Assembly (NCBI GenBank): GCA_035629395.1
Contig: DASPHZ010000030.1
Coordinates: forward strand, 25,440 to 89,439
Length of the DNA: 64,000 bases
DNA from: Thermoanaerobaculia bacterium
GTDB lineage: Bacteria; Acidobacteriota; Thermoanaerobaculia; Gp7-AA8
Direction of reading: 5' to 3'
Part shown: in pieces, positions 6,422 to 23,427 of the stretch
How the letters are laid out: every line of letters begins with the position of its first letter
Position numbering within the stretch: the stretch's first letter is position 1
Position numbers and translations under genes: made by a program
The notes under the pieces: generated by a model
What the model was told of the DNA's origin: nothing
What the model saw: the letters and a program-made list of their open reading frames with translations, nothing else
The model's database searches: none

Positions 6422-6616
6422 CTACTTCGCGCGAGCGGCCGGCGTTGCGTTCTCGAAGTACACGACGACGTCGAACGCCCGCGCCAGTGGCAGCATCAGG
6501 TGTCCGGCCTGGAAGCGCATCGGACGCCCCTCCGACAGCCACGCGCTCATCTCCCCGCGAAGCGACAGCAGAAACGGCGCCTTCCCGACTGTCGCCAGCA
6601 CAGCGTCGAAGCGCAT
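6422..6616 (-). CDS. Possible small hypothetical ORF (64 aa) upstream of SPFH gene
   Basis: High GC3 in frame (MRFDAVLATVGKAPFLL...); no recognisable domain and not NfeD-like. Confidence 0.25.
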   Translation of the reverse strand: MRFDAVLATVGKAPFLLSLRGEMSAWLSEGRPMRFQAGHLMLPLARAFDVVVYFENATPAARAK

Positions 6617-6737
6617 GCCCGATCCCGGAAAACTCCCGGGCGGCAGAGCCGTGCCCTGGACCGGCGCGCGCTGCACGTGCGCGATTGCGATCCGAAACAC
6701 GTAGCCAGTTACGCGGCGCCCACCGCACGGTCGCGTG

Positions 6738-8099
6738 TCATTTGCGACGGCGCGGTTTCGGTTGTGTGGGCGTTTCGACACTCCCCAGAGCTTCGGCGAT
6801 CTGCGCGGGAACGTTCGCGCGCATCGTGTCGATGTGGCGGAACTTGATGCCGCCGTCGAAGCGCCATTCGTGTTGCGGGCGATACACGCCGATGTCGTGC
6901 ACGCGCGAGCCGACGACGATGCGGATCACGTTGCGGCGATAGTCGAATGCGCGGCCGTTGCGCGTGTGCACGGCGACGTCGATGCGATACGTCCCCGCGA
7001 CGAGATCGAGCGACGCGACGACGAAGCGCACGCGCGACGTGCCTTCGATGCGCTCGGCCGCGAAGCCTTCGACGTCCGTGTTCGTGCCGTACACGCACGT
7101 GCCGTCGGCGTGGTAGATGCCGAGGCCGAAGACGAAGTCGTCCTGCGGGACGCGAACTTCCACGTCGACGTCCACGACGACAGGCGTGCCGGCGCCGAGG
7201 GCGACGAGCTCGCGGCCGTCGTGATCGGTGAGCGAGACGCGCTTGATGAGGATCTCGCCGGAGCCCCAGCGTTCTTCGTCGTGGTCGGATTTTTTCGGCT
7301 CTTCCGGGGCCGCCGGTGCGGACGCCGCCGGATCCGCCGGCGAGGGCGCCGGCGTGCCGCTGACTTCCTGCAGGTACGCGTCGACCACGCGAAGCGGGTC
7401 GCCGATCGCTTCGACCTGGCCGTGGTCGAGCCACAACGCGCGGTCGCAGAGGTTGCGCACCTGGTCGAGCTGGTGCGTGACGAAGAGGAGCGTTACGCCG
7501 CGGTACTTCATCTCCTGAATCTTCGCGATGCATCTCGCGGAGAACTCTTCGTCGCCGACGGCGAGCACTTCGTCGATCAACAGCACGTCCGGATCGACGT
7601 GCACGGCGACCGCGAATCCGAGGCGCACGTACATCCCCGAGGAGTACGTCTTCACCGGCTGGTCGAGAAAATCGGCGATCCCGGAGAACTCCACGATGCG
7701 ATCGAAGCGCTGGTCGATCTCGCGCCGCGAGAGCCCCAGCATGATCCCGTTGATGTAGATGTTCTCGCGGCCGGTGATCTCCGGATGAAAGCCCGCGCCC
7801 AGCTCGATCAGCGCGGCGATGCGACCGTTCACGACGACTTTGCCGCGCGTCGGTTTGAGGATCCCGGAGACGAGCTTGAGCAGCGTCGACTTGCCCGAGC
7901 CGTTGCGTCCGATCACGCCGAACGCTTCACCGCGGTCGACGGCGAACGACACGTTCTTCAAGGCAGCAACCGCGGCGTCGGGAGCGAGCTTCAGCTCGCG
8001 CTTGAGCAACGCGCTCTTGAGCGTCGCGAACTGCGAGCTGCGTCCCCACAGGCGATAGTCCTTGGAAACGTTCTCGAGCGAGATCGAAAAGTCAGGCAC
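6738..8099 (-). CDS. ABC transporter ATP-binding protein, polysaccharide/O-antigen export type (Wzt/TagH-like) with C-terminal extension domain
   Basis: Walker A GRNGSGKST, signature SSGMYVRLGF, Walker B LLIDEVLAVGD, H-loop THQ; about 180-aa C-terminal domain as in Wzt carbohydrate-binding domains. Confidence 0.85.
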   Translation of the reverse strand: MPDFSISLENVSKDYRLWGRSSQFATLKSALLKRELKLAPDAAVAALKNVSFAVDRGEAFGVIGRNGSGKSTLLKLVSGILKPTRGKVVVNGRIAALIELGAGFHPEITGRENIYINGIMLGLSRREIDQRFDRIVEFSGIADFLDQPVKTYSSGMYVRLGFAVAVHVDPDVLLIDEVLAVGDEEFSARCIAKIQEMKYRGVTLLFVTHQLDQVRNLCDRALWLDHGQVEAIGDPLRVVDAYLQEVSGTPAPSPADPAASAPAAPEEPKKSDHDEERWGSGEILIKRVSLTDHDGRELVALGAGTPVVVDVDVEVRVPQDDFVFGLGIYHADGTCVYGTNTDVEGFAAERIEGTSRVRFVVASLDLVAGTYRIDVAVHTRNGRAFDYRRNVIRIVVGSRVHDIGVYRPQHEWRFDGGIKFRHIDTMRANVPAQIAEALGSVETPTQPKPRRRK

Positions 8100-8142
8100 G
8101 TGTCGCGGATTGTAATCGCGTCGCGGAGATGGAGCTGCGGCG

Positions 8143-8934
8143 CTAGATCGCTTCGGCCAGCGTGTCGCGCAGGCGATCGAACACGAACATCCCGGCGATG
8201 ATCGACGTCCCCGCGTACGCGATCATCAGCAGCGTGTCCGAGAGGTTCGGCAGGCGTCCGAAGAAGAAGATGTCCTGATAGGCGATGACGAACGGCGTCA
8301 TCGGATTGAGGCGCAGCATCGCGCGCAGACCGCGCGATTCGATGCGCTCGACGAGATACAGGATCGGCGTGACGAAGAACCCGAGCTGCAGCAGGTTCGC
8401 CACGATGTCGCGCAGGTCGCGGAACAGCACCGACGCGGACGAAACGATCATCGCGATCCCCGCGACGAAGATCGCCTGCAGCAGCATGACCGCCGGCGCG
8501 AGGACGATCGTCCAGTTCGGATCGAAGCTGCCCATGAGCGTGAAGCCGAGGATCGCGGCGAGCATGATCGGGATCGCCGCTAGAAAGTGCACGAGGTGCG
8601 AGAGCACGACCACCAGAGGCAACGCCTCCGCCGGAAACATCACCTTCTTGATCAGGCCCGCGTTCGAGGAGATCGACGCCGTCGACTCGAGCACCGCCGC
8701 GGCGAAGAACGTCCACGGCAGGATGCCGGCGAAGAGAAACAGCGGGTACGGCTGCACGACCTGCTGCGGGAAAAACTTCGTGAAGACGAGGGTGTAGACC
8801 GCGAGCAGCAGCAGCGGATTGGCGAGCGACCAGAAGAAGCCGAGGATCGAGCCGCGGTAACGCGCCTTGAGGTCTCGCGCGGTCAGGGCCGCGATGAGTT
8901 GCCTGTGCCGGTAGAGATTGGAGAGCTCGGCCAT
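8143..8934 (-). CDS. ABC-2 type transporter permease (Wzm/TagG-like)
   Basis: Six TM segments, ABC-2 permease signature; start at MAELSN (ATG 8934) immediately upstream of the ATPase gene. Confidence 0.8.
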   Translation of the reverse strand: MAELSNLYRHRQLIAALTARDLKARYRGSILGFFWSLANPLLLLAVYTLVFTKFFPQQVVQPYPLFLFAGILPWTFFAAAVLESTASISSNAGLIKKVMFPAEALPLVVVLSHLVHFLAAIPIMLAAILGFTLMGSFDPNWTIVLAPAVMLLQAIFVAGIAMIVSSASVLFRDLRDIVANLLQLGFFVTPILYLVERIESRGLRAMLRLNPMTPFVIAYQDIFFFGRLPNLSDTLLMIAYAGTSIIAGMFVFDRLRDTLAEAI

Positions 8935-9000
8935 GGTTGTCGGTTGTCCGTCGTCGGTTGTCTGTGATGCAGCGGCCGGCACAGACATCAGACGGCGGAC
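8935..9000. repeat. Imperfect hairpin repeat with (GGTTGTC)n-type left arm between permease start and FHA gene stop
   Basis: ggttgtcggttgtccgtcgtcggttgtctgtgatgcagcggccggcacagacatcagacggcggacgacatc. Confidence 0.6.
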
Positions 9001-9004
9001 GACA

Positions 9005-9613
9005 TCAGTGATCGTCCGTAACGATCAGCATCAACGTGGTCGCGCCCACCTGAAACTCCGCCTTGTCACTCAGCTCGACCGGGCCGTCGATCTTCGAGCC
9101 GCTGACGAGCGTGCCGTTCGTCGAGCCGAGATCGTGGAGGTTGTAAGTCGTATCGCGGATCTCGAGCGCCGCATGCTGCCGCGAAGCCTCGGTGTCGTTG
9201 AGCGTCAGGTCGGCGTTCGAGCGGCCGATCGTCACACGCGGCTTCTCGATGCGAAAGACGCTCCCCGCGTCGGGACCGTCGAGGATGGCCAGTGAGAGGC
9301 GCTTGCCGGGCGGCAGATGCAGCGAGGTCTCCGGCTTCGGCAACTGCGACTGCTCGGTCGTATCCGGCGGCGTCGTCGGCAACGCGGAGGTGCGCGTCTG
9401 CTCGCGCGAGGTGTACGTGGAATCGCGGGCGTCGACCGCGACCGGCTCACGCGCCGCGAAGGCGGGATTGTGGATCTCGAAGATCTGCTGGCAGCGCGCG
9501 CACTTGATCTTCTTCGACGGCTTCCGCTCGAAGCGCTCCTCGTCGTATTGATACTTCGAATGGCATTGAGGGCATTCGATGATCACGTCGGCGGGACGAT
9601 AACATGATTTCAT
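9005..9613 (-). CDS. FHA-domain protein with N-terminal zinc ribbon
   Basis: CPQCHSKYQY...KCARCQQIF zinc ribbon; C-terminal FHA (TIGRSNADLTLNDTEASRQHAALEIRDTTYNLHDLGSTNGTLV). Start at MKSCY (ATG 9613..9611). Confidence 0.75.
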   Translation of the reverse strand: MKSCYRPADVIIECPQCHSKYQYDEERFERKPSKKIKCARCQQIFEIHNPAFAAREPVAVDARDSTYTSREQTRTSALPTTPPDTTEQSQLPKPETSLHLPPGKRLSLAILDGPDAGSVFRIEKPRVTIGRSNADLTLNDTEASRQHAALEIRDTTYNLHDLGSTNGTLVSGSKIDGPVELSDKAEFQVGATTLMLIVTDDH

Positions 9614-11629: not shown

Positions 11630-13522
11630 CTACGCGAGCTTCCGAATCGCTTCTTCCACCTGCTCCGCGGTCGGGACCACCGGCTGCACCAGCGATCCCT
11701 CGAGCCATTCGTACTCGCCCTTCATGAACTTCTGGACGACCTTGTACGCGAGCTCGTCGTGGTTATCGAAGAGCGTGCGGAAGTTCTGGTCGACGCGCAC
11801 GCGCGCTTCGCGGCAGAAGAGATCCGCCAGCTCGAGCGCGTTCTTGTCGCCCTTTTTCGCGAGCATCGTGGCGTAGCTGATCGTCGCCGACATCGCGAAG
11901 AGGTCCGTGCCGATGTCGACGATGCGGAACAGCACCATCTGCTTCCGCTCCAGCTTCGCCTGGAAGCGCATCATGGCGTGGAAGATCGAGCGCGAGAGAT
12001 GACGCGACTGGCGCTCGAGGTAGCCGACATGCGTCTGCAGGCGCCCGAACTCGGAATGTTTCGGGAAACGGCTCCACCCCACATAACGCGTCGGGTACCA
12101 GGTCGCGTAGAACGCGCCCGCCTTCGCGGCCGCGGAGAGCTTCTCGCCCGTCGGCGTCTCCGGCAGCAGGATCTTGTAGCCGCGCTTCATGTGCGGATCG
12201 ACCGCCTCGCGCGCGATGAAGAGATGCTGGATCTCGCTCGTCCCTTCGAAGATGCGGTTGATGCGCATGTCGCGCATGATCCGCTCGACCGGATGCGCCT
12301 TCTCGCCGCGCGCCTTGAGTGACGCCGACGTCTCGAATCCGCGTCCGCCGCGGATCTGCACGAGATGATCGACGCACTGCCACGCCACTTCCGTGTTGAA
12401 CAGCTTCGCCATCGCCGCTTCGAGGCGCAGGTCGACGTCGCCGCGATCGGCGAGGCCGGACGTCAGCCACACGATCGCTTCCATCGCCAGCGTGTGCGAG
12501 GCCATCCAGGCGATCTTCGACGCGACGCCTTCGTGCTTGCCGATCGCCGCGCCCCACTGCACGCGCTCGTTCGCCCACTCGCGTGCGATCTCGAGCATGC
12601 GGCGCGCGCCGGCCGCGCAGCCCGCGGGGATCGTGAGGCGTCCCGTGTTCAGCGTGATGAGCGCGAGCTTCAGGCCGAGGCCTTCACCCCAGAGGAGATT
12701 CTCTTTCGGGACGAAGACGTCCTTGAACTTGATCAGCACGTTGCCGATGCCGCGCAGGCCCATGAACTGGCAGCGGTGCGCGATCTCGACGCCCGGCGTG
12801 TCCATCTCCAGGATGAACGCGGAGATCTGCTTCTTCTCCTTGCCGTTCACGACCTTCGGCGGCGTCTGCGCCATGACCACGATGAGCTCGGCCTTGAGGC
12901 CGTTCGTGCACCACAGCTTCTCGCCGTTGAGGATCCATCCCTTGCCGTCCGGAGTGGGCGTCGCGCGCGTCTCCATCTTGGCGGGATCCGATCCGACGCC
13001 CGGTTCGGTGAGCGCGAACGCGGAGATCGCGCCGTTCGCCAGCCGCGGCAGGTACTTTTTCTTCTGCTCCTCGGTGCCGAAGAGCTTGAGCGGCTGCGGC
13101 ACGCCGATGGACTGATGCGCGGAGAGCCAGGCCACGCTCGACGCGCACCATGTCGCGACGAGGCCGATGGCGCGGTTGTAGTTCGTGGCGGAGAATCCGA
13201 GGCCGCCGTACTCCTTGGGGATCTTCATGCCCCAGGCGCCGAGCTTGTTGAAGCCTTCGAAGAGGCTGTAGTCGTACTCGCCCTTCGCGTCGATCTCCTC
13301 GGCGTCCACGTTCTCGGCGAGGAAGCGCTCGAGGTTCTGGAGGAACGGGTCCGCCTCGGCTTTGTCGGCCGCCGGCTGCTCGGGGAAGGGGTGGATCAGG
13401 TCGAGATTGAGCTTGCCGAGGAACAGATCGCCGACGAATGAGGGCTTTTCCCATTCGGTTTCGCGCGAGGCCTCGGCGACTTCCATCGCCTCGACGGCGC
13501 CCTGCGTTTTGACTTCCGCCAT
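11630..13522 (-). CDS. Acyl-CoA dehydrogenase family protein (long form with C-terminal extension)
   Basis: ACAD N-terminal, middle and C-terminal domain motifs (FALTEPGVGSD...WCTNG...RIFEGTSEIQ). Confidence 0.85.
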   Translation of the reverse strand: MAEVKTQGAVEAMEVAEASRETEWEKPSFVGDLFLGKLNLDLIHPFPEQPAADKAEADPFLQNLERFLAENVDAEEIDAKGEYDYSLFEGFNKLGAWGMKIPKEYGGLGFSATNYNRAIGLVATWCASSVAWLSAHQSIGVPQPLKLFGTEEQKKKYLPRLANGAISAFALTEPGVGSDPAKMETRATPTPDGKGWILNGEKLWCTNGLKAELIVVMAQTPPKVVNGKEKKQISAFILEMDTPGVEIAHRCQFMGLRGIGNVLIKFKDVFVPKENLLWGEGLGLKLALITLNTGRLTIPAGCAAGARRMLEIAREWANERVQWGAAIGKHEGVASKIAWMASHTLAMEAIVWLTSGLADRGDVDLRLEAAMAKLFNTEVAWQCVDHLVQIRGGRGFETSASLKARGEKAHPVERIMRDMRINRIFEGTSEIQHLFIAREAVDPHMKRGYKILLPETPTGEKLSAAAKAGAFYATWYPTRYVGWSRFPKHSEFGRLQTHVGYLERQSRHLSRSIFHAMMRFQAKLERKQMVLFRIVDIGTDLFAMSATISYATMLAKKGDKNALELADLFCREARVRVDQNFRTLFDNHDELAYKVVQKFMKGEYEWLEGSLVQPVVPTAEQVEEAIRKLA

Positions 13523-13641
13523 ACGTGACTCCTTAGAGCTCGGGATTTACAGATTTCGTACCGGGGAGCGCGAGTATGAATGAATCACCATTCAGTCGTC
13601 AATTTGCCAGATTCGAGCCATGGAAATGGGATGATGCCGCC

Positions 13642-13932
13642 ATGCCTGCACTCGTCATCGTCGACATCGAAGTGACCGACCCCGTTCGCTACGAGGACTA
13701 CAAGCGCCTCGCCTCCGCGTCCATCGCCGCGCACGGAGGGCGTTATCTCGTCCGCGGCGGACAAAGCGAAGTGCTGGACGGCACGTGGACGCCGCGCCGC
13801 CTCGTGGTGCTGGAGTTCGACTCGGTCGAAAAAGCGAAGGCGTGGCGCGAGTCGCCGGAGTACGCCGAGGCGAAGCAGGTGCGCGCGAGTTGCGCGCGCG
13901 CGAACATGGTGGTCGTGGAGGGAGTGTCGTAA
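13642..13932 (+). CDS. DUF1330-family small protein
   Basis: MPALVIVDIEVTDPVRYEDYKRLA...LVVLEFDSVEKAKAWRESPEY is characteristic of DUF1330. Confidence 0.65.
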   Translation: MPALVIVDIEVTDPVRYEDYKRLASASIAAHGGRYLVRGGQSEVLDGTWTPRRLVVLEFDSVEKAKAWRESPEYAEAKQVRASCARANMVVVEGVS

Positions 13933-14035: not shown

Positions 14036-15892
14036 CTACCGCCGCCCGCCCACGATCGCCCGCAGCGTTCGCAGGCGCACGTCCAGCTCCTCGGGGGTCA
14101 CGTTCGCGTACTTGGCCGGGAGGAGGCGGCGGCTCGAAGCTTCGAACACGGCCAGCAGCTCCATGTACTCGAGCAGCTCGGTGTCGCGGCTCGGGAAGTA
14201 ATCCGCGGCCGCGCGGATGAAGCGCTCCTCGCTCACTTCCGTGAGTCCCTCGCGCGCCGCGTCGTCGAGCGCCATCAACACCACCGCTTCGATGTCCGCG
14301 TTGCTGTAGCCGACGAGCTTCTTCGAAAACCCATCGCGGATCGCGGCAAAGTCGACGCTCGTCTTCACGCGGTTCTTGCGCACCAGTGCGCGGGCGATGT
14401 TCTCCACTTCCTCCGGCGTCTGGCAGTAGAGGAACGGGATCTTGCGGTCGAGACGGCCGGCGCGTTTGAGATCGACGTCGAGCTTGTCCGGACGGTTCGT
14501 CATCACGAGGAAGAGGATCCGTCCGCGATTGCTCGTATCGGACATGAACTCCTTGATCCGTGCGATCACGCGCGACGACGTGCCGCCGTCGCCTTCTCCA
14601 TCCGTGTTGCCGAAGGCGCGGTCGCCTTCGTCGATGATCACCACGACCTGCCCGATCGCGCGGATCACGTTCAGGATCTTCTCGAGGTTTCCTTCCGTCG
14701 CGCCGACCCACTTCGAGCGGAAGTTCTTCAGCTTGATCGTCGTGAGGCCGCACTCCTTCGCAAACGCCTCGGCCACGAACGTTTTCCCCGTGCCCATCGG
14801 ACCGGTGAACAGCACGCCCATCGGCACGCGCGCGGTCTGGCCGTCGCGGATGCTCGCGGCGATCACGGAGAGATCCTTCTTCACTTCCTCCATCCCGCCG
14901 ACGACGTCGAACCCGTGCTGCGGCTCGACGAATTCGACGAGGCCGAAGCACTCGCGCTCCAGGATCTCGCGCTTGCGGCGCGCGATCAGACGATCGACCT
15001 CCTGGCGCGCCGCTTCGGCACGATCGGCCTGCACTTTTTCGGCCGCCGAGTCGACTGCCGAAGCCCCCGGCGCGAGCAGCTTCGCGATCTCCTCGCGGCC
15101 CATTCCGGCGGTGAGCTGCGCGAGCTTCCGCGCGCGCTCCGGCACATCCGTGCCGCTGCCGAGGATTCCGGAGATGAAGGCCTCGCGATCGTGGGATTCG
15201 GTCTCGCTCACCGGCGGAGGCGTGAGGATCGTCAGGACCTGGATCGCCTTGAGCCCCGCGGTGATCTCCGCGTAGCGCGCGACCTCCTTCTCCGTCAGCG
15301 AGCGATCCGCCAGCGCGGCCGCGGCCTTGCGCGTCTCGCGATCCGGCATCGGCACATCCACCACCGCCACTTTCGGGTTCGACACCAGCTTCGGCGCGAG
15401 CTCCGCCAGGTTTTCGGAGATGAGGATGACGACGTTGTCGCTCCGTTCGATCTGCGGCAGGAACGACCAGCGATGCAGCGTGACGACCGCGGCGCGATCG
15501 GCCTCGCTCTGGAAATTCGGGTCGCCCGCGGGCGCGACGACTTCCGCGTATTCGACGATCACCGCCGTGCGCGTGTTGGCCATGAGCAGGCGCTCGACCG
15601 CCGCGAGCACGCGCGGCTTCTCCACCGACGACAGCATCTGGTCCGTCTCGGCGGCGAGTCCCGGCGGCTGCTTCAGAAAACGCACGCCGGTGGCGACGTT
15701 GTAGACGGCGACGATCTCTTTCGAGTCGCGGAGCAGCACGTTGCCCAGGAATTCCGTGAGCGTCAGCGTGCGGCCGCCGCTCAGGACGACGTCGTAGACG
15801 TTGCCGTGCAGGACGAAGATCGACGCCTCGCCGCGCAGGTAGCGCCGCCGCAGGTCGTCGGCCCAGGGAGGAAGAATGCGAGCCTCGGCCAA
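14036..15892 (-). CDS. AAA+ ATPase (classic clade: Walker A/B plus second region of homology) with about 330-aa uncharacterised N-terminal domain; TTG start abutting upstream stop
   Basis: [14 protein letters not shown] (Walker A), VVIIDEGD (Walker B), SRH ([27 protein letters not shown]). N-terminal region has no recognisable motif. Start codon TTG directly follows TAG of the upstream gene. Confidence 0.8.
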
Positions 15893-16798
15893 CTAAACCC
15901 CCATCGTGCTCAGAATTTTTTCCGTGTCGAGCGCCGTCTGGCGGATCGACTCCACGCCGTCCAGCAGATCGTCGAGTTGTCCGGTCAGCTCCGCCGGCGA
16001 CTGCATCATCACGATCTGGTCCGCGATGAGCTGGAACGAGTTCTCGATCAGATCGAGCTGTCCGCGGGCGACGCGCAGATAGTCGCGCAGCTCGCTCAGC
16101 TTCTCGAGCCGCTTGCGGATCACGGCGAGATTCTTCTTCGCGATGTCGCTTTCCTGCGGAGAGATCTCACCCGATTCGATGCGCCGCTCCCAATGCGCGC
16201 GGTCGTGCTCGAGCTCCCGGAAATCGATCGTCTCGAGATACGCCTCGTAGCGCGCGCACGTGATGGCCATCTCCACGAACGCGTCGACGAGCCGGCGCGT
16301 CTTGATCAGCTCACTGCGCAGCAGCTCGCCCGTGAACGACGGGTTCTGCGAAGCCAGACGATGAATGTCGGCCTGTCTGCCGACGAGCTGGTAGACGCGC
16401 TCGCGGTCCTCCTGCGGCAACGCCTTCAGCCGCTCCTCGCGCTCGCGCGCCTCGAGGGCGAGACGCACCTTCTCGAAACGCGGATCCCAGAGCAGCCGGC
16501 GGAGCGTCTTCGACTCCGACCCGTGCATCAGCCAGAGCAGCTCGCCGCCGATCGCCGCGGCCGCGAGGATCGGATTCATCGTCGCCGCGGCAGCGGCCAG
16601 CGTGCCGAGGAAGAGGGAGAGGTTGTACGGATTGGCGAACGCCATCTTCAGATACGGACGCTTCTCGAAGACGGCATCGGTGACGACGTCTTTCGCGGTC
16701 TCGCGAATCGCCTTCTGCAGGTCCGGCTTCGCGGGTCTCTGCTGCGCGTCGCGTTTCCGCGGCGGCATCTGCGTCGTCTTGGTGGACACCGGCGTCAT
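15893..16798 (-). CDS. Membrane-associated coiled-coil protein of unknown function (about 301 aa), translationally coupled to the AAA ATPase
   Basis: Basic N-terminus, hydrophobic segment NLSLFLGTLAAAAATMNPILAAAAIGGELLWLM, then about 200 aa of predicted coiled coil. The 571-aa ORF-track extension overlaps the opposite-strand SBP gene and is rejected. Confidence 0.6.
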   Translation of the reverse strand: MTPVSTKTTQMPPRKRDAQQRPAKPDLQKAIRETAKDVVTDAVFEKRPYLKMAFANPYNLSLFLGTLAAAAATMNPILAAAAIGGELLWLMHGSESKTLRRLLWDPRFEKVRLALEAREREERLKALPQEDRERVYQLVGRQADIHRLASQNPSFTGELLRSELIKTRRLVDAFVEMAITCARYEAYLETIDFRELEHDRAHWERRIESGEISPQESDIAKKNLAVIRKRLEKLSELRDYLRVARGQLDLIENSFQLIADQIVMMQSPAELTGQLDDLLDGVESIRQTALDTEKILSTMGV

Positions 16799-16870
16799 TC
16801 TACGTGAGCCTCTCGTTTGCGAGCCCGGCGGGCACTCCGTATCATGCCGCCACATTCGGAGCGTGCATTC

Positions 16871-17959
16871 ATGAGACTGACCCCTTTCGCCAAGGTCTTC
16901 ATCACCATTGTGATCCTCGGGATCATCGGCTACATCGGCTGGCATTACCGCGACAAGCTGCCGAAGGGCGGCCAGAAGCAGGACGCGTCCACCGCGACGT
17001 CGGGCACGACCACGACCGCCGCGGCCACGAGCACCGCACCCGGCGCCACGCCGGCGTCGACCCAGCCCAGCCCCACCGGCGTGCTCGCGAAGATCCGCCG
17101 CGACAAAGTCCTGCGCGTCGGGATGGAGCCGGATGCGCCGCCGCTGCATTTCATCAACGAAAACCAGCAGGAAGACGGCTTCGACTTTCAGATGGCCGCG
17201 CGGATCGGAAAGCATCTCGGCACCGAGCGCGTGCGCGTCGTCGAGGCCGACTACGGCGAGCTGCCCGCGCTGCTGCAGCGCGGCGACATCGACATCATCA
17301 TGGCAGGCTACGTCCCCGATCCCGCGGTCCAGGGCGTCGACTGGAGCAACGGCTATCTCGACTTCGGCCTCTGCATGATCGTGCAGGAGGGGATGCTCTC
17401 GAGCTACCGCGACGTCTCCGACCTCGCCGGAAAAGTCGTCGCCATCTACGACGACCCTGCCGCCGAAAAGTGGGTGCGGGCGAACATCCCCAACGCCACG
17501 ATCCGCAAATTCTCCGGCGACTCCGGATGGTTCGAAGCCGTCGAGAACGGCCAGGCCGATGCGCTGATCTACGACTATCCGTTCGCGGCGGTCGAGATCA
17601 AGGAGCATCCGCGGACCGTCATCGCCAAGTACAACCTCAACAAATCAAAATACGCCGTCGGCGTCCCCTCCGGAAATTACGACCTGGTCTACGAGATCAA
17701 CCAGGCGCTCGACCGGATCAAGGAATCCGACCAGTACGCGACGCTCATGAAGACCTACCTGGCGAGCAAATCCGAAGCGTTCATGCAGCCGGTGGCCGGA
17801 CGCAGGACGCATCGCGTGGTGGCCGGCGACACACTCGGCAAGATCGCGCGCCAGGAGCTCGGCAGCTCGGAGCGCTGGGAAGACATCTGGAAGCTCAACA
17901 CCGAGCGCGTCGCCGATCCCAACCTCATCTACCCCGGACTGGTGTTGATCCTGCCGTAA
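16871..17959 (+). CDS. Membrane-anchored solute-binding protein (SBP_bac_3, amino-acid-binding type) fused to C-terminal LysM domain
   Basis: N-terminal TM, Thr/Ala-rich linker, periplasmic binding fold, C-terminal LysM (HRVVAGDTLGKIARQELGSSERWEDIWKLN...LIYPGLVLILP). Confidence 0.75.
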   Translation: MRLTPFAKVFITIVILGIIGYIGWHYRDKLPKGGQKQDASTATSGTTTTAAATSTAPGATPASTQPSPTGVLAKIRRDKVLRVGMEPDAPPLHFINENQQEDGFDFQMAARIGKHLGTERVRVVEADYGELPALLQRGDIDIIMAGYVPDPAVQGVDWSNGYLDFGLCMIVQEGMLSSYRDVSDLAGKVVAIYDDPAAEKWVRANIPNATIRKFSGDSGWFEAVENGQADALIYDYPFAAVEIKEHPRTVIAKYNLNKSKYAVGVPSGNYDLVYEINQALDRIKESDQYATLMKTYLASKSEAFMQPVAGRRTHRVVAGDTLGKIARQELGSSERWEDIWKLNTERVADPNLIYPGLVLILP

Positions 17960-17973
17960 CGCGAGGACCCTCA

Positions 17974-19599
17974 ATGGCAAGAACCCCACTCTTCTCTCTC
18001 GTCCAACGTTCCCTCCGTCTCGCCGCCTTCGCCTCCAAATCGGAAGGGCTGCCGGCCGATGAAATCGTCGACCGCGTGCTCGAAGGCGAAATGCCCGGCG
18101 TGTCCCGCCGCCAGTTCTTCCGGACGGCGGCCGCCGCGGGCGTCGTCGCCTCGACGCCGGATCTCTTCAGCGCCTTCGGCCAGACGGGCGGCCTCAAGCC
18201 GCGTACGGCCATCGTCGGCGCCGGCATCGCCGGTCTGAACTGCGCGTACAAGCTCCGCAAAGCGGGAGTGCCGGTGCACGTCTTCGAAGCATCGAGCCGC
18301 TCCGGCGGGCGCATGTTCACCGCCAACAACCTGCTCGCGCCCGGTATCACGACGGAGCTGGGCGGGGAGTTCATCGACAGCGGCCACGAAGAGCTGCTCA
18401 GCCTCGTCAAAGAGTTCAAGCTCGGGATGTACGACTTCCGGAAGCCGAGCAAGATCAAGGCGGAGGCGTTCTTCTTCGACGGCCGCCACTACAGCGAGAA
18501 GGACGTGGTCAAGGCCTTCATCCCGCTGGCCCGCAAGATCGCGAAAGACTACGACTCCCTCGGCGAAGAGGTCAGTTATCGCGACCACGGAAACGGCAAA
18601 GAGCTCGACAACACCTCGATCGCCGAATACCTCGACAAGATCGGCGCACGCGGCTGGGTCCGCGAGCTCCTGCACGTCGCCTACGTCACCGAATACGGCC
18701 TCGAAGCGGAGCAGCAGTCGTCACTGAATCTCATTCAGATGATCGGCACCGACACGAGCGAAGGTTTCAAACCGTTCGGCGACAGCGACGAGCGGTTCAC
18801 GGTCAAGGGTGGCAACGAGCGGGTGGTCGTGGAGCTCGCGAACCGTCTCGACCAAGGGATCGTCTCCCTCCGCCACCGGCTGACCGCCATCTCGGCCAAA
18901 GGCAAAGGCTACGTCCTCACCTTCGAAGGCCCGAACGGCACGCCGTTCGATCGCGACTTCGACACGGTCGTCCTCACACTCCCGTTCACCATGCTGCGCG
19001 AAGTCGACATCCGCGTTCCGCTTCCCGCCGTGAAGCTCAAGGCGATCAAGGAGCTCGGCTACGGCACGAACGCGAAAGTGCTCGCGGGCTTCCACGCGCG
19101 GCAGTGGAAGAATCTCGGCTACCGCGGCAACACCCTGAGCGACGAACGCTTCCAGCTCTGCTGGGACAACGCCGCGCTGCAGCCGGGCACGAGCAGCGGC
19201 ATCACGTTCTATTCGGGCGGCAAGCTCGGCATCGAAGCGGGCGAGGGCACCGCGCAGGAAGCCGTGGCGCGGCTGATGCCGGGGCTCGAGCGCGCGTATC
19301 CCGGCTCGGCGAAACAGCACAACGGAAACGTGTCGCGGTTCCACTGGCCGACGCACCCGTTCACGAAAGGGTCCTACGCCGCGTATCTGCCGGGGCAGTG
19401 GACCTCCATCGGCGGCGCGGAAGGGGAGTCCGTCGGCAACCTCCATTTCGCCGGCGAGCACACGAGCGTCGACTTCCAGGGCTACATGAACGGCGGCGCG
19501 CAATCGGGCGCGGATGCCGCGAAAGCGGTGCTGGCGTCGGTGAGTGAGAAGGCGGCGCGCCTGTTCGTGCGGCGCTCCTCCGCCCGTCTCTGGGCCTGA
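17974..19599 (+). CDS. Flavin-containing amine oxidase family protein with Tat signal peptide
   Basis: Twin-arginine motif SRRQFFRTAAAAG; FAD dinucleotide-binding motif AIVGAGIAGLNCAYKL...VFEASSRSGGR. Confidence 0.8.
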   Translation: MARTPLFSLVQRSLRLAAFASKSEGLPADEIVDRVLEGEMPGVSRRQFFRTAAAAGVVASTPDLFSAFGQTGGLKPRTAIVGAGIAGLNCAYKLRKAGVPVHVFEASSRSGGRMFTANNLLAPGITTELGGEFIDSGHEELLSLVKEFKLGMYDFRKPSKIKAEAFFFDGRHYSEKDVVKAFIPLARKIAKDYDSLGEEVSYRDHGNGKELDNTSIAEYLDKIGARGWVRELLHVAYVTEYGLEAEQQSSLNLIQMIGTDTSEGFKPFGDSDERFTVKGGNERVVVELANRLDQGIVSLRHRLTAISAKGKGYVLTFEGPNGTPFDRDFDTVVLTLPFTMLREVDIRVPLPAVKLKAIKELGYGTNAKVLAGFHARQWKNLGYRGNTLSDERFQLCWDNAALQPGTSSGITFYSGGKLGIEAGEGTAQEAVARLMPGLERAYPGSAKQHNGNVSRFHWPTHPFTKGSYAAYLPGQWTSIGGAEGESVGNLHFAGEHTSVDFQGYMNGGAQSGADAAKAVLASVSEKAARLFVRRSSARLWA

Positions 19600-19606
19600 C
19601 GATTCA

Positions 19607-19637
19607 CGGAGTGCGGAGGCAGCGCCTCCGCACTCCG
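19607..19637. terminator. Perfect 14-bp stem / 3-nt loop hairpin between convergent amine oxidase and pspA genes (no U tract)
   Basis: cggagtgcggaggc-agc-gcctccgcactccg. Confidence 0.45.
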
Positions 19638-19639
19638 GA

Positions 19640-20344
19640 TCACATCGTCTTCTGTCCCTGGGCCGCCTGTTGCGCGGCCTTGCGTGCCTTCAGCTCCGCC
19701 AGCTCCTGCTTGGCCTGCACGTCGCCGACCTGATTGCGCAGGTTCGCGAGGCGGCCGTCGAGCGACGTATCGGAGAGCTCCTTGCCGAGGTTCGCTTCGG
19801 CGATCGTGTTGCGGATGTGCGTGCGGACGTTGTCGAGCGCGCGCACCTCGTCGTCGACGGAGAGCCCGTCGAGCTGCTCCTGGATGCGCATGCGCGCCTG
19901 CGCCGACTGCATCTTCGCCAGCATCGAATCGCGCTCCGCTTTCAGCTTGCGGATCTCTCCCTGCACCGACAGCAGCGACGACTTCGCGGAGTCCGCGTCG
20001 CCGCGCGCCGCTTCGAGGTCGGCCTTCAGTTCCTCGATCTGGCCGAGGAGCTGGTTCTTCTTCTGGATCAGCACGACCGCGAGATCGTCCTGGCTCGTCT
20101 CCACCGCGGTGTTGAGCTCCGCTTCGGTCTGCTGCAGCTCGCCGGTGGCGTGTTTGAAGCGCTCCTCGAGATCCTCGCGGCGGCGGATGATCGCGGCCGT
20201 CGCGCTCTTGAGCTTCGCGTACTTGCCGACCATCGAGTTGATGGCGTTCTCGTACGCGATCTCCGGATGCTCCTTCTCGATGCCCGAGATCCACAACGAA
20301 AGGAACCCTCTCCACAAATTGCGGACACGCGATATCAGGCCCAT
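19640..20344 (-). CDS. pspA: PspA/IM30 (Vipp1) family protein
   Basis: [35 protein letters not shown]..., long coiled coil, typical PspA N-terminus. Confidence 0.9.
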
Positions 20345-20352
20345 GACTCTCC

Positions 20353-21009
20353 TCAGTTCCCGCTCTTCGGTTCGTGCAGCTTCGGAGACTCGCGCACGAC
20401 CTTGGCGACGGCGTCCTGCCCGAAGAACTCGAGGACTTTCTGCACCTCGAGCTTCTTCGCGTTGCAGGCACGCATGACTTTGTGTTGTTCGTCGACGCGC
20501 TGCTGCATCGCCCTGCGCAACAGCGCGATCTGCTCCTCGAGGGCGCGGATGTCGGTCTCGCCCTGGGCGGTCACCTGCTCGGTATCGCGCGCGCTGCCGC
20601 GGATGTAGGCCTCGAGCGCCTGGAGCTGCTCCGCGCCCGACTCGATGATCTTCTCGATCGGCACACCGAACGCGCGCAGCGACGCCATGACGATCTGCCG
20701 CTTGACGGCGTCGTCGGTGTCGGGTGGGAGAGAATTCAGCAGCTCGAGGGTCCGCGACACGCGCTCGTGCTCCTCGGCCGTGATGCCCGCGGCTTCGTAC
20801 ACGCTCCCGAAGTCGACTTCCCCCGCGGGCGCGGGGGGCGGCTCGGAGGTGAAGACCGGCAGATCGTCCGGCTCCGCCTGCGCGGCCTGCCGGATCAGCT
20901 CATCCTCATCGGCCGCGGCGACCGGTTCCGGGACCTCGCCCTCACCCGCCGCATCCTGGACGATGAACCACCCCTTGACCGTGGCTCCCCAACCCTTTTT
21001 GTCGGACAT
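20353..21009 (-). CDS. Hypothetical acidic protein encoded immediately upstream of pspA (likely co-transcribed)
   Basis: 8-nt spacing to pspA; no recognisable motif. Confidence 0.55.
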
Positions 21010-21233: not shown

Positions 21234-21431
21234 ATGAACAGCACGCTTCGCGGCATCGGCATTCGCGCGATGATCCTCGTCATCGGCATCGTTCTCGTCG
21301 GGATCTGGCTCGCGTCGCTGGCGCTGAAGATTGCCGGAGCGGCGATTCATTTCCTGCTCGTCGTCGGTCTGCTGCTCGTCGTCGCGGCCGTGCTGAGCTA
21401 CCTTGTGCACCGCTTCAAGCGACGCGCATAG
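21234..21431 (+). CDS. Possible small two-TM membrane protein (65 aa)
   Basis: MNSTLRGIGIRAMILVIGIVLVGIWLASLALKIAGAAIHFLLVVGLLLVVAAVLSYLV. Confidence 0.35.
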   Translation: MNSTLRGIGIRAMILVIGIVLVGIWLASLALKIAGAAIHFLLVVGLLLVVAAVLSYLVHRFKRRA

Positions 21432-21615
21432 GGAGCAACTCGACGCTGCGACGTCAGCAGGATCGGCCGCGTGCAGCAGTGGAGTCGGCCGATCGACGTC
21501 GATGGCGCAGCTCTCCTCCGTCGCGGAACCGCAGCCTCGGCCGTACTCGACGAAAAGCTGGAACCGAAGTGGAATACCACCAACATCCGGTTGCGGATCA
21601 TGGAGGGGTGAATCG

Positions 21616-22443
21616 ATGAAAGACGAACACGAAGACGAGACCTCCGAGGTCGAGCTGAGTGAGGATGAGAAAGCGCTGCTCGAGGAAATGCCGGCGCTGA
21701 CCGGCGTCGGCCACACCCGCCGCGCCTTCCTCGGCACGTCGATCGCGGGCGGGCTCGGGTTTTTTGCGCTCGACCTTCTTGCGCGGGAGGAGGCGCTCGC
21801 GGCGCTGCAGGCCGCGCCCGACGCGGTGCTCGCGCCCGATGCCATGGCGCAGAACCTCGTGAAGGTGGCGTTTCGGGTCAACGGCGCGACGAAGACGCTC
21901 GAGCTCGACTCGCGCGTCGTGCTGCTCGATGCATTGCGCGAGCGTCTCGCCCTGACCGGCTCCAAGAAAGGCTGCGATCAGGGACAGTGCGGCGCATGCA
22001 CGGTCATCGTCGACGGCCGCCGCGTCCTCTCCTGCCTCACGCTCACCGCCACGGTCGAGGGGAAGGAAGTCACCACCGTCGAAGGCCTCGTGAAAGGCGA
22101 TCAGCTTCATCCGATGCAGGCCGCGTTCATCAAGTACGACGCCTTCCAGTGCGGCTACTGCACGCCCGGCCAGCTCTGCTCTGCCGTTGCGCTCCTCGAC
22201 GAAGCCAGGCGTGGCGACGTGAGCCACGTGACCGAGGACGTCACGGTGACGGCCACGACGCTCACCGACGACCAGATCCGCGAGCGGATGAGCGGCAACA
22301 TCTGCCGCTGCGGCGCCTATCCCGGCATCGTCGCCGCGATTCAGGAAGTGCACTCCGGCAGACAGACGCAGCACACGTGGCGCTTCGTCGATGAAGAGCA
22401 GTTGGCGCGTATCCGGGAGGAGGACGGCATTGAGACCGTTTAA
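21616..22443 (+). CDS. Periplasmic aldehyde oxidoreductase (2Fe-2S)-binding subunit, PaoA-like, with Tat signal
   Basis: Tat motif TRRAFLGTSIAGG; two [2Fe-2S] motifs (CDQGQCGACTV and CGYCTPG...CRCGAY). Confidence 0.85.
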   Translation: MKDEHEDETSEVELSEDEKALLEEMPALTGVGHTRRAFLGTSIAGGLGFFALDLLAREEALAALQAAPDAVLAPDAMAQNLVKVAFRVNGATKTLELDSRVVLLDALRERLALTGSKKGCDQGQCGACTVIVDGRRVLSCLTLTATVEGKEVTTVEGLVKGDQLHPMQAAFIKYDAFQCGYCTPGQLCSAVALLDEARRGDVSHVTEDVTVTATTLTDDQIRERMSGNICRCGAYPGIVAAIQEVHSGRQTQHTWRFVDEEQLARIREEDGIETV

Positions 22444-23416
22444 ATACGTCCGCGCTGGAAATCCGAATGGCGCCGCGCGCGCCGTCGGCGCGAACCCGAA
22501 CGCGAAGTTCCTCGCGGGCGGGACGAACATCCTCGACCTCATGAAAGAGGACGTCGAACGTCCGAACGAGCTGGTGGACGTCACGCGCCTCGCGCTCAAA
22601 GAGATCAAGCCGTTGCGCGGCGGCGTCTCGATCGGTGCACTGGCGACGAACACCGAGACCGCGAACAACGCGCTGATCCGCAACAACTATCCGCTGCTGT
22701 CGCAGGCGATCGTGGCGGGTGCGTCGGCGCAGCTCCGCAACATGGCCACGAACGGCGGCAACCTCCTGCAGCGCACGCGTTGCCAGTACTTCTACGACAC
22801 GGCCATGCCGTGCAACAAACGCGAGCCCGGCACGGGTTGCGGCGCGCTGCAGGGACTGAACCGCTATCACGCGATCTTCGGCTGGAGCGAGGCGTGTGTC
22901 GCGACGTATCCGGGAGACATGGCCACGGCGCTGTACGCGCTCGAAGCAGTCGTGCGCGTGCGCGCCGCGGACGGACGCGAGCGCGCGATTCCGATCCACG
23001 ACTTCCATCGCCTTCCCGGCGATGCACCGCAGAAAGACACGAACCTCGAGCATGGGGAGCTGATCGTCGCGATCGAGCTGCCGAAGTCGAATTTCGCCGC
23101 GAACTCGTACTACCTCAAAGTGCGCGAGCGTGCGTCGTACGCGTTCGCGCTCGTCTCCGTGGCCGCGGCAGTGGAGCTCGCAGGCGGCACGATCCGGCAG
23201 GCCCGCGTCGTCCTCGGCAGCGTCGCGCACAAACCGTGGCGCAGCGCGGAGGCCGAGGCGGCGCTCGCCGGACGGCCCGCCACGGAAGAGAGCTTCCGCG
23301 CCGCGGCCGAAGCGGCCATGCAGGGCGCGAAGCCGCTCACGCACAACGCCTACAAAGTCGAGCTGGGGAGACGGGCCATCGTCCGCGCGCTGATGCGTGC
23401 GAGCCGGCTCGCGTGA
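22430..23416 (+). CDS. Xanthine dehydrogenase-family FAD-binding subunit (PaoB-like); probable TTG start after GGAGGA
   Basis: FKYVRAG...FLAGGTNILDLMK FAD-binding fold; four spaced Cys (RCQ, PCN, GCG, ACV) compatible with a PaoB-type [4Fe-4S]. Confidence 0.8.
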   Translation: MRPFKYVRAGNPNGAARAVGANPNAKFLAGGTNILDLMKEDVERPNELVDVTRLALKEIKPLRGGVSIGALATNTETANNALIRNNYPLLSQAIVAGASAQLRNMATNGGNLLQRTRCQYFYDTAMPCNKREPGTGCGALQGLNRYHAIFGWSEACVATYPGDMATALYALEAVVRVRAADGRERAIPIHDFHRLPGDAPQKDTNLEHGELIVAIELPKSNFAANSYYLKVRERASYAFALVSVAAAVELAGGTIRQARVVLGSVAHKPWRSAEAEAALAGRPATEESFRAAAEAAMQGAKPLTHNAYKVELGRRAIVRALMRASRLA

Positions 23417-23427
23417 CGGAGGACCGC

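Follow-up and report, generated by a model that had tools for sequence, protein, structure and literature searches.

The window, the whole 64-kb stretch of DNA analysed here, carries an ATPase gene directly after a gene for a membrane coiled-coil protein, in the neighbourhood of pspA. The locus comprises the following genes:

14036..15892, minus strand, gene B (618 aa, TTG start), tandem AAA ATPase
15893..16798, minus strand, gene A (301 aa, ATG start), membrane-hairpin coiled-coil protein
16871..17959, plus strand, solute-binding protein (SBP) with LysM domain, between gene A and pspA
17974..19599, plus strand, flavin amine oxidase, likewise between gene A and pspA and in the same direction as the SBP + LysM gene
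19640..20344, minus strand, PspA/IM30 (PF04012)
20353..21009, minus strand, X (218 aa), no family match

X, PspA, A and B all lie inside 14036-21009. The A/B junction reads ...GGG GTT TAG TTG GCC..., and both the open reading frames and this sequence confirm the initial annotation that the TAG stop of A (15893-15895) is followed without a gap by the TTG start of B. Homologues begin at equivalent residues, which supports both starts. PspA was correctly placed at 19640-20344 and is a true PF04012 member (aa 3-222; 67.9 bits against a cut-off of 33.9; E = 1.3e-18), and the upstream partner of PspA at 20353-21009, described as uncharacterised, indeed matches no family. PspA/IM30 belongs to the ESCRT-III superfamily. 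The only feature returned by a promoter and terminator scan was a promoter-like site ahead of the SBP gene.

Gene B encodes a tandem (type II-like) AAA protein with an inactive first domain, divided as follows:

15218..15892, minus strand, aa 1-225, degenerate AAA-like domain (D1) without nucleotide-binding motifs
14927..15217, minus strand, aa 226-322, helical linker, delimited by alignment
14198..14926, minus strand, aa 323-565, classic-clade AAA module plus lid (D2)

The canonical AAA domain previously assigned to the C-terminal half was recovered as PF00004 at aa 360-487 (E = 1.7e-26; 93.6 bits against a cut-off of 21.2) with a full motif set: Walker A (GPMGTGKT, 364-371), Walker B (VVIIDE, 417-422), pore loop (KWVG, 394-397), sensor-1 (MTNRP, 464-468), both arginine fingers intact (RAGRLD, 477-482) and lid (GYSNAD, 528-533). 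Across a homologue alignment, the module is nearly invariant between orders and all motifs are invariant in the family; as judged from these residues, no motif of an active, substrate-threading classic AAA is missing from D2. Its best sequence matches among solved structures were p97/Cdc48 D2 (E ~1e-44), and the single-ring proteins FtsH, Msp1 and ATAD1 were good structural matches. The linker includes a variable insert of ~55 aa that is missing from many homologues. The N-terminal part, at first considered of unrecognised type, turned out to hold a degenerate AAA-like domain (aa 1 to ~225), in which a loop at aa 114-128 is conserved. Of the two possibilities that the initial annotation had proposed to check there, an inactive P-loop domain was found and an MIT-like domain was not. 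A Pfam search of B revealed neither MIT nor any other recognised substrate-recognition domain, and hhalign comparison of the N-domain with the C-domain gave no signal. Protease domains and transmembrane segments are likewise absent from B. Membership in the Vps4/CdvC family was rejected; the N-terminus is alpha/beta AAA-like rather than a three-helix MIT, and the CdvC model NF041006 (NCBIfam) scored 59.9 bits against a cut-off of 650, over the AAA core only.

Gene A follows the architecture outlined in the initial annotation, with a basic N-terminus, a hydrophobic segment and about 200 aa of coiled coil, which we could delimit as follows:

16523..16630, minus strand, aa 57-92, two-armed hydrophobic block
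15899..16486, minus strand, aa 105-300, cytoplasmic bundle of long helices (~200 aa; pLDDT ~90 in the AF2 model)

The basic N-terminus is variable. The block, predicted to form a helical hairpin with both ends cytoplasmic, has a length of 28-36 aa among 55 diverse members and of 33 aa in almost every one, with arms of 13-14 aa each and a central polar/aromatic turn that reads T-x-N-P in the window and T-G-N-W-W in many other members. Both flanks have a conserved net positive charge, and N59, E86 (53 of the 55 members) and W89 are near-invariant. Searches with gene A against Pfam, NCBIfam, PADLOC and PDB sequences yielded no match; its homologues number >2,200, every one annotated ‘hypothetical’, and the A profile matches 696 clusters at 50% identity.

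Proteins of the A type were classified by Ravi et al. 2024 (mSystems 9:e00847-23, PMC11237479) as ‘SIG+TM+Snf7’, a “divergent membrane-anchored Snf7”. A Pfam scan at E ≤ 1 assigned Snf7 (PF03357) or PspA (PF04012) to 0 of the 55 diverse members, and the A-family profile retrieved nothing relevant from PDB sequences. With hhalign, A reached a probability of ≤2% against the cluster PspA and 2.7% against Snf7+Shrub, a small profile built from PDB sequences, while the positive control, true PspA against Snf7, likewise reached only 5.3%, so the Snf7+Shrub comparison has no power. The best-probability match of A among solved structures was Chlamydia IncA, at E = 0.37 and among many generic helical bundles. 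The ESCRT-III/PspA/Snf7 check suggested with the initial annotation was thus carried out, and no ESCRT-III similarity was demonstrable by sequence-profile, profile-profile or structure comparison; the only controlled comparison was powerless, and these tests neither confirm nor exclude the Snf7 assignment.

The locus belongs to an operon type known from comparative genomics. Ravi et al. 2024 (PMC11237479) described it earlier with the example OGG56892.1 from Candidatus Handelsmanbacteria and the gene string X(s), PspA, PBPB+OmpA, TM permease, ABC ATPase, TM+Snf7 and inactive-AAA+AAA, and proposed ATP-dependent membrane remodelling comparable to Snf7/Vps4. The remodelling idea is therefore not new; experimental work on the operon was absent from the literature searched. 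Among 62 related genomes, 53 proved to carry the same seven-gene cluster. Its occurrence extends over Vicinamibacterales, Thermoanaerobaculia, Pyrinomonadaceae and one metagenome-assembled genome labelled Steroidobacteraceae. In this usual form, all genes run in one direction in the order X, PspA, peptidoglycan-tethered SBP, ABC permease, ABC ATPase, A and B. B directly follows A in all 70 related Acidobacteriota loci, and X and PspA lie just upstream of the pair in 60/62, the exceptions (L014 and L017) having A-B without X and PspA within 10 kb upstream. Together with a metagenomic locus, L143, in which only 2 nt separate the PspA stop from the B start and B is separated from A, these counts bear out the earlier expectation that the pair is conserved and syntenic with pspA. 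The conserved synteny also supports the initial suggestion that the pair forms a module for membrane stress or remodelling, with a possible link to PspA.

The window represents a transporter-less variant, in which the SBP + LysM and amine oxidase genes are inverted between PspA and A and orthologues of the permease and ABC ATPase occur nowhere in the 64 kb. Four-gene clusters (L052, L059 and L080) similarly keep X, PspA, A and B and have lost the permease and ABC ATPase, which indicates, as does the window, that A-B works without the transporter. Metagenomes additionally contained shuffled orders, namely PspA-A-B, SBP-PspA-A-B and B after PspA divergent from X-SBP-permease-ABC-A. In every metagenomic locus with an upstream flank (n = 7), B was accompanied by PspA. 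PspA was also found in clusters without B (L091, L094 and L098), which makes B dispensable for PspA in some lineages. Wherever flanks were visible, PspA and B occurred together or PspA occurred alone, with L014 and L017 as the exceptions among genome loci. More distant relatives (L085-L088, L106 and L109) have X, SBP + OmpA, permease, ABC ATPase and A, and neither PspA nor the AAA gene, and in L138 and L141 A is divergent from transporter genes alone. Within Acidobacteriota, B keeps closer to A than it ever does to PspA. The versions without PspA and AAA gene and the PspA-then-AAA locus are new relative to Ravi et al. 2024. The five-gene set of X, transporter and A looks like the common core, and its presence in distant relatives without PspA or B suggests that the primary partner of A may be the transporter rather than PspA.

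X itself bears the motif KKGWGxxVxGWFVV at its N-terminus, followed by a disordered linker and then by a helical domain at the C-terminus. Neither the family search nor a search of PDB sequences with the X-family profile gave a match, a Pfam scan of 14 X members detected no Snf7 and no PspA, and hhalign of X with PspA and with A gave no signal. True X homologues (hmmsearch ~1e-26; hhalign 99.5%) also head the clusters without PspA and AAA gene. An assignment of X to Mod_r/Vps37C was not trusted; it reflects sub-threshold coiled-coil noise in 5/14 members (best E = 0.0075), with 14.1 bits against a cut-off of 30.1 for the window X.

The SBP + LysM and amine oxidase genes, which separate the pair from pspA, are relevant to the locus despite their opposite strand. 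The first combines an SBP_bac_3 domain (1.8e-18) with a C-terminal LysM domain (4.7e-07). It probably starts at the conserved ATG at 16871, from which its signal anchor is conserved, the mechanical ORF start at 16817 being likely wrong. It occupies the same position in the closest relatives, and its product aligns with the SBP-OmpA family (hhalign probability 98%, E = 1e-13); it is a periplasmic protein that corresponds to the SBP + OmpA protein found in the canonical cluster. The amine oxidase (PF01593, 1.1e-52) recurs in L001, L005, L007, L008 and L011 and is specific to the window-type variant; whether it is part of the system is uncertain.

We favour, at a probability of roughly 55%, the reading that A and B are the distal genes of a PspA-centred envelope cluster in which B acts as a Vps4-like motor on PspA. 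In its favour count the synteny of A-B with X and PspA, the recurrence of these genes in shuffled orders, the intact motifs of D2, the conserved hydrophobic block and confidently modelled helices of A and the genuine PF04012 membership of PspA; Ravi et al. 2024 also arrived independently at a remodelling motor. Against it stand the clusters that have A, X and the transporter without PspA or B, those with PspA but no B, the two A-B loci lacking X and PspA (L014 and L017), the absence of a recognised substrate-recognition domain in B and the lack of a demonstrable ESCRT-III similarity of A. A is predicted to combine a 33-residue helical hairpin, which would sit in the inner membrane, with a ~200-aa bundle of long helices in the cytoplasm. 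B would be a soluble two-domain AAA protein with a D1 unable to bind nucleotide and a D2 bearing active-type motifs. The stop-start junction may ensure that B is made stoichiometrically with A, on which it most likely docks as a hexamer at the membrane. B would then use ATP to dismantle coiled-coil assemblies, chiefly PspA polymers but perhaps also A or X. In this role it would resemble Vps4, as a motor that recycles or activates an ESCRT-III-superfamily protein of bacteria. Through the peptidoglycan-bound periplasmic SBP, the module could be coupled to conditions in the cell wall or periplasm. The more specific proposal, that the cluster is a bacterial counterpart of the ESCRT-III/Vps4 cycle in which A-docked B disassembles or activates PspA polymers and is wired to the tethered SBP, is tentative, and we hold it to be somewhat doubtful.

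Other readings place the emphasis on different partners. A, together with X, might assist or regulate the peptidoglycan-tethered ABC transport system as one of its subunits. B would then act on A, X or the transporter for their regulated unfolding or turnover, and PspA would be a co-regulated stress effector and not the substrate of B. The five-gene clusters without PspA or AAA gene, the loci where A is divergent from transporter genes alone and the tightness of A-B relative to PspA-B all speak for this arrangement. We nevertheless consider it unlikely, because B is nearly always confined to loci with PspA and in L143 follows PspA apart from A, while X, PspA, A and B persist together in the window and in the four-gene clusters, where the permease and ABC ATPase have been lost. 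The structural resemblance of D2 to FtsH, Msp1 and ATAD1, together with the two loci that have A-B with no pspA nearby, would suit a stand-alone system for membrane protein quality control, in which an Msp1- or FtsH-type extraction ATPase works with a membrane adaptor and proximity to pspA reflects a shared envelope-stress response. The synteny in 60/62 loci, the recurrence of the same partners in shuffled orders and the PspA-then-B locus make this quite improbable, as does the lack of a protease domain or transmembrane segment in B.

The IncA match raises the idea that A is a SNARE- or IncA-like fusion or tethering protein and B its NSF-like disassembly ATPase. We give it little credence, since the match has E = 0.37, lies among generic bundles and comes with no sequence similarity, and the gene context carries no hint of fusion and is dominated by the PspA linkage. 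An anti-phage defence module, suggested by weak PADLOC matches (IetA and TRIP13 models, E = 3e-11 at best) in the AAA module, is barely credible. We rejected this reading because the matches are limited to the core common to AAA proteins; no defence family was hit by A, X or PspA, no mobile-element or defence-island context was seen, and the cluster is widespread in the phylum with a stable order rather than patchy.

How bacterial PspA/Vipp1 polymers are disassembled or recycled is an open question, and a 2025 review states that a Vps4-like ATPase “appears absent in bacteria”. The cluster offers a concrete candidate for ATP-driven PspA remodelling, and B could be the motor commonly described as missing for PspA in bacteria. 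The proteins at issue, X, PspA, A and B, are four in number, small, and soluble or membrane-bound; for reconstitution, the transporter-less window and the four-gene versions provide the simplest starting points. As X, A and the tethered ABC transporter may constitute an older core, PspA may have been recruited later to an existing envelope-sensing or transport device.

Comparison with known systems places the locus among several partial relatives. In both A and Chlamydia IncA, a hydrophobic hairpin of two arms precedes a bundle of cytosolic helices, whereas IncA is a type III secreted inclusion-membrane protein and its non-significant match to A involves no sequence similarity. Escherichia coli PspF-PspA likewise couples an AAA+ protein to PspA, in that case genetically and functionally; however, PspF, which PspA inhibits, is an NtrC-type enhancer-binding AAA+ protein with an HTH domain, while B belongs to the classic clade, is of the unfoldase type and lacks a DNA-binding domain. 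B differs from p97/Cdc48, NVL/Rix7 and Pex1/Pex6 in having no N-terminal double-psi-barrel or other cofactor-binding domain, in a D1 that lacks all nucleotide-binding motifs and not merely catalytic residues, and in the much shorter length of its family (~560-620 aa). Compared with the operon of Ravi et al. 2024, the window lacks the permease and ABC ATPase, and its SBP has LysM instead of OmpA and is inverted beside an amine oxidase, but X, PspA, an A-type protein and a tandem AAA again share one neighbourhood. Lastly, B departs from Vps4 by its degenerate D1 and missing MIT domain, and A from ESCRT-III by its integral hydrophobic hairpin and the lack of a demonstrable ESCRT-III fold, yet the locus shares with archaeal CdvB/CdvC and eukaryotic Snf7/Vps4 a classic-clade AAA with an aromatic pore loop encoded directly after a membrane coiled-coil gene, and an ESCRT-III-superfamily protein, PspA, in the same cluster.

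The conserved unit studied here is a pair of adjacent genes, A (coiled-coil protein) and B (AAA ATPase), found near PspA and X, the partner encoded upstream of PspA:

15893-16798, minus strand: gene A, 301 aa, ATG start, TAG stop
14036-15892, minus strand: gene B, 618 aa, TTG start
16871-17959, plus strand: binding protein with a LysM domain
17974-19599, plus strand: flavin amine oxidase
19640-20344, minus strand: PspA
20353-21009, minus strand: X, 218 aa

The stop-start coupling reported in the initial annotation was borne out, the TTG of B lying immediately 3' of the TAG of A, and homologue alignments placed both start sites at equivalent residues. Pfam identified the PspA gene as a bona fide PF04012 member and returned no family match for X. 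Downstream of B lie genes for a DUF1330 protein (13576-13932, plus strand) and a 630-aa ACAD9/VLCAD-type acyl-CoA dehydrogenase (11630-13522, minus strand), neither of which is kept beside the cluster in relatives.

Scanning one genome per species, we detected relatives of A in 221 genomes and took synteny from the best 80, all from labelled Acidobacteriota lineages. B directly followed A at all 70 loci with sufficient flank, and X and PspA lay upstream of the pair at 60 of 62 loci, distributed as follows:

53 loci: seven-gene cluster of X, PspA, binding protein + OmpA, ABC permease, ABC ATPase, A and B
3 loci: the arrangement of the window
3 loci: four-gene cluster of X, PspA, A and B
1 locus: X and PspA upstream, with other genes between them and A-B
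2 loci (L014, L017): PspA absent within 10 kb upstream

The binding protein of the seven-gene cluster is NMT1-type and fused to an OmpA peptidoglycan-binding domain; this cluster also occurs in a metagenome-assembled genome (MAG) labelled Steroidobacteraceae. Gene linkage of A-B to the PspA cluster is thus established by computation, the pair almost certainly belongs to that cluster, and the linkage with X-PspA supports the earlier reading of a membrane-remodelling or stress module with a possible link to PspA. In some Thermoanaerobaculia (L017 and L018, ~6500-9300, minus strand), another ABC system, distantly related (25-38% identity), lies upstream of A and on the strand opposite to it, a further independent replacement of the transporter segment; it is placed between X-PspA and A in L018, and X and PspA were not found in L017. 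In L067 (10909-12751), from a long-read MAG, the B orthologue is broken into four frames, apparently through assembly indels and not by pseudogenization.

In the window's lineage, two opposite-strand genes replace the three transporter genes, and the whole 64 kb contain no orthologue of the permease or of the ABC ATPase. The N-terminal part of the OmpA-type binding protein has its homologue in the LysM protein (hhalign probability 98%, E 1e-13), whose signal anchor is conserved; a peptidoglycan-tethered periplasmic binding protein has therefore been kept despite loss of the importer. Its mechanical start (TTG 16817) is probably wrong and the conserved ATG 16871 (MRLTPFAKVF..., signal anchor) right, which leaves 72 bp between this gene and the divergent gene A, with a promoter-like site at 16817-16845 (TTGCGA-17-TATCAT). 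About 45 residues in from the N-terminus of the amine oxidase, SRRQFFRTAAAAG reads as a twin-arginine-like motif, so the protein may be periplasmic; its gene is co-directional with the LysM gene and found only in window-type clusters. The genes at 21403-25641 (plus strand) have counterparts in just 1 of 160 fetched loci, where they are non-adjacent, and their closeness to the cluster is probably coincidental.

Gene A had no match in Pfam, NCBIfam, PADLOC or PDB sequences; its nearest database match, 100% identical, comes from a MAG of Thermoanaerobaculia (Acidobacteriota). The family is large, with >2200 proteins matched in the first search and 696 clusters (50% identity clustering) matched by its profile. 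In 55 diverse members (23-55% identity), a constant architecture begins with a short variable N-terminus and includes a nearly invariant Asn (N59) and a hydrophobic block, almost always 33 residues long (range 28-36), flanked by net-positive charge on both sides. Within the block, two arms of 13-14 residues are parted by a polar/aromatic turn (T-x-N-P in the window, T-G-N-W-W in many other members), the second arm bearing nearly invariant Glu E86 (53/55) and Trp W89. Neither arm is long enough to span a membrane in the normal way, and we therefore infer that the two form a helical hairpin whose ends both lie in the cytoplasm, either re-entrant or across a thinned bilayer. AlphaFold2 modelled residues 105-300 as confident long helices (pLDDT ~90; 106-124, 129-151, 158-190, 193-209, 214-261, 268-298), and conservation of the hairpin and helical bundle is established by computation. 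Several distant members (such as P0293, P0300, P0272, P0379 and P0384 in alignment A4) add a disordered stretch and a short basic C-terminal tail (for example, ...RGRLR, ...RQRQRG, ...RVRN, ...RVKN), absent from the window's clade.

Ravi et al. 2024 (PMC11237479) labelled the A-type protein TM+Snf7. At E<=1, neither the Snf7 nor the PspA model was hit by any of the 55 members, no ESCRT-III was found among PDB sequences with the family profile, and hhalign gave no signal between A and the co-resident PspA profile; as a control, a small real-sequence Snf7 profile failed to recover even the accepted PspA-Snf7 relationship (probability 5.3%). The top Foldseek probability fell on Chlamydia IncA (0.96, E 0.37, TM 0.52 normalised to target), in a type of search that long-helix proteins such as A defeat.

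Residues 360-487 of B match PF00004 AAA (E 1.7e-26), and the canonical classic-clade domain recognised initially carries its full motif set:

aa 364-371: Walker A, GPMGTGKT
aa 394-397: pore loop, KWVG
aa 417-422: Walker B, VVIIDE
aa 464-468: sensor-1, MTNRP
aa 477-482: arginine fingers, RAGRLD
aa 528-533: lid motif, GYSNAD

That the motor motifs are intact is established by computation; the closest solved sequence relatives are p97/Cdc48 D2 domains (E ~1e-44), and the module hardly varies from one acidobacterial order to the next. In the AlphaFold2 model (mean pLDDT 74), alternating strands and helices up to residue ~225 form a domain; next come a helical linker bearing a variable ~55-aa insert, then the AAA module and C-terminal helices. 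The N-terminal part, initially called unknown and suspected to be possibly an inactive P-loop type, is thus a degenerate first AAA domain (D1), as established by computation, upholding the suspicion and not the label. A highly conserved, poorly modelled D1 loop (aa 114-128) is a candidate contact for a partner or substrate.

Members of the A family at ~25% identity occur in five-gene clusters of X-like gene, binding protein + OmpA, permease, ABC ATPase and A (L085-L088), with neither PspA nor an AAA gene, the first gene being a true X homologue (hmmsearch ~1e-26, hhalign 99.5%). A metagenome scan with a mid-distance A subfamily, its loci analysed with HMMs, added further arrangements:

L090, L119, L120, L124: seven-gene form including B
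L091, L094, L098: same cluster with PspA, B absent
L106, L109: five-gene core
L138, L141: A divergent from the transporter genes
L149: PspA-A-B
L158: binding protein-PspA-A-B
L143: PspA, then B after 2 nt on one strand; X-binding protein-permease-ABC-A divergent on the other

From these arrangements it follows that the common core is X, A and a tethered transporter, that B accompanies PspA in sampled loci (exceptions L014 and L017), PspA sometimes occurring without B, and that the gene directly coupled to B can be A or PspA. The pattern fits a functional system, not a chance neighbourhood, and makes PspA the most likely client of B.

X forms a family of its own (window 20353-21009, minus strand; L085:6015-6650; L086:5984-6652; L087:6046-6696; L088:5939-6556), with an N-terminal aromatic/basic motif (KKGWGxxVxGWFVV), a disordered Ala/Pro/acidic linker, a VDFxxVYEAAGI motif and a helical C-terminal domain. 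Among the few members aligned, PspA-linked X has an extra C-terminal tail absent from PspA-less X. Weak sub-threshold Pfam matches to Mod_r (Vps37 C-terminal) in 5 of 14 members are probably coiled-coil noise.

We propose that A is held in the inner membrane, its bundle facing the cytoplasm, and that B, co-produced through the stop-start junction, would form a hexamer on A. Pore loops of the active second AAA domain (D2) would thread and take apart coiled-coil assemblies, with PspA polymers as prime candidates and A or X as alternatives, so that B would recycle or activate PspA under envelope stress; the peptidoglycan-bound periplasmic binding protein would connect the module with the condition of the wall or periplasm. 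We give this mechanism as a whole a probability of roughly 55%. Its main rival, in which A-B works for the transporter core and PspA is merely co-regulated, would suit the five-gene clusters that have neither PspA nor an AAA gene; against it stand the window and the four-gene clusters, which keep A-B but lack the permease and ABC ATPase, and L143, where B directly follows PspA, and we consider it unlikely. Readings of A-B as SNARE/NSF-like, as stand-alone quality control or as defence are minor.

The operon has already been described by comparative genomics, which limits novelty: Ravi et al. 2024 (PMC11237479) gave the string for OGG56892.1 as X(s), PspA, PBPB+OmpA, TM(s), ABC ATPase, TM+Snf7, inactive-AAA+AAA and proposed the same Snf7/Vps4-like role, and the window holds a transporter-less LysM variant. 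Literature searches found no experimental study. We found no earlier description of the invariable coupling of A to B, of a core made up of X, the transporter and A that lacks PspA and B, of the L143 order with B directly after PspA, or of a hairpin constant at 33 residues and bearing a nearly invariant Glu. Compared with known systems, B is not a member of the Vps4 family: it lacks the MIT domain and scores 59.9 bits against the NCBIfam model of CdvC, the archaeal Vps4-type ATPase (cut-off 650). B could still work like Vps4. According to a recent review, a Vps4-like ATPase "appears absent in bacteria"; the cluster makes ATP-driven PspA remodelling in bacteria a directly testable question.
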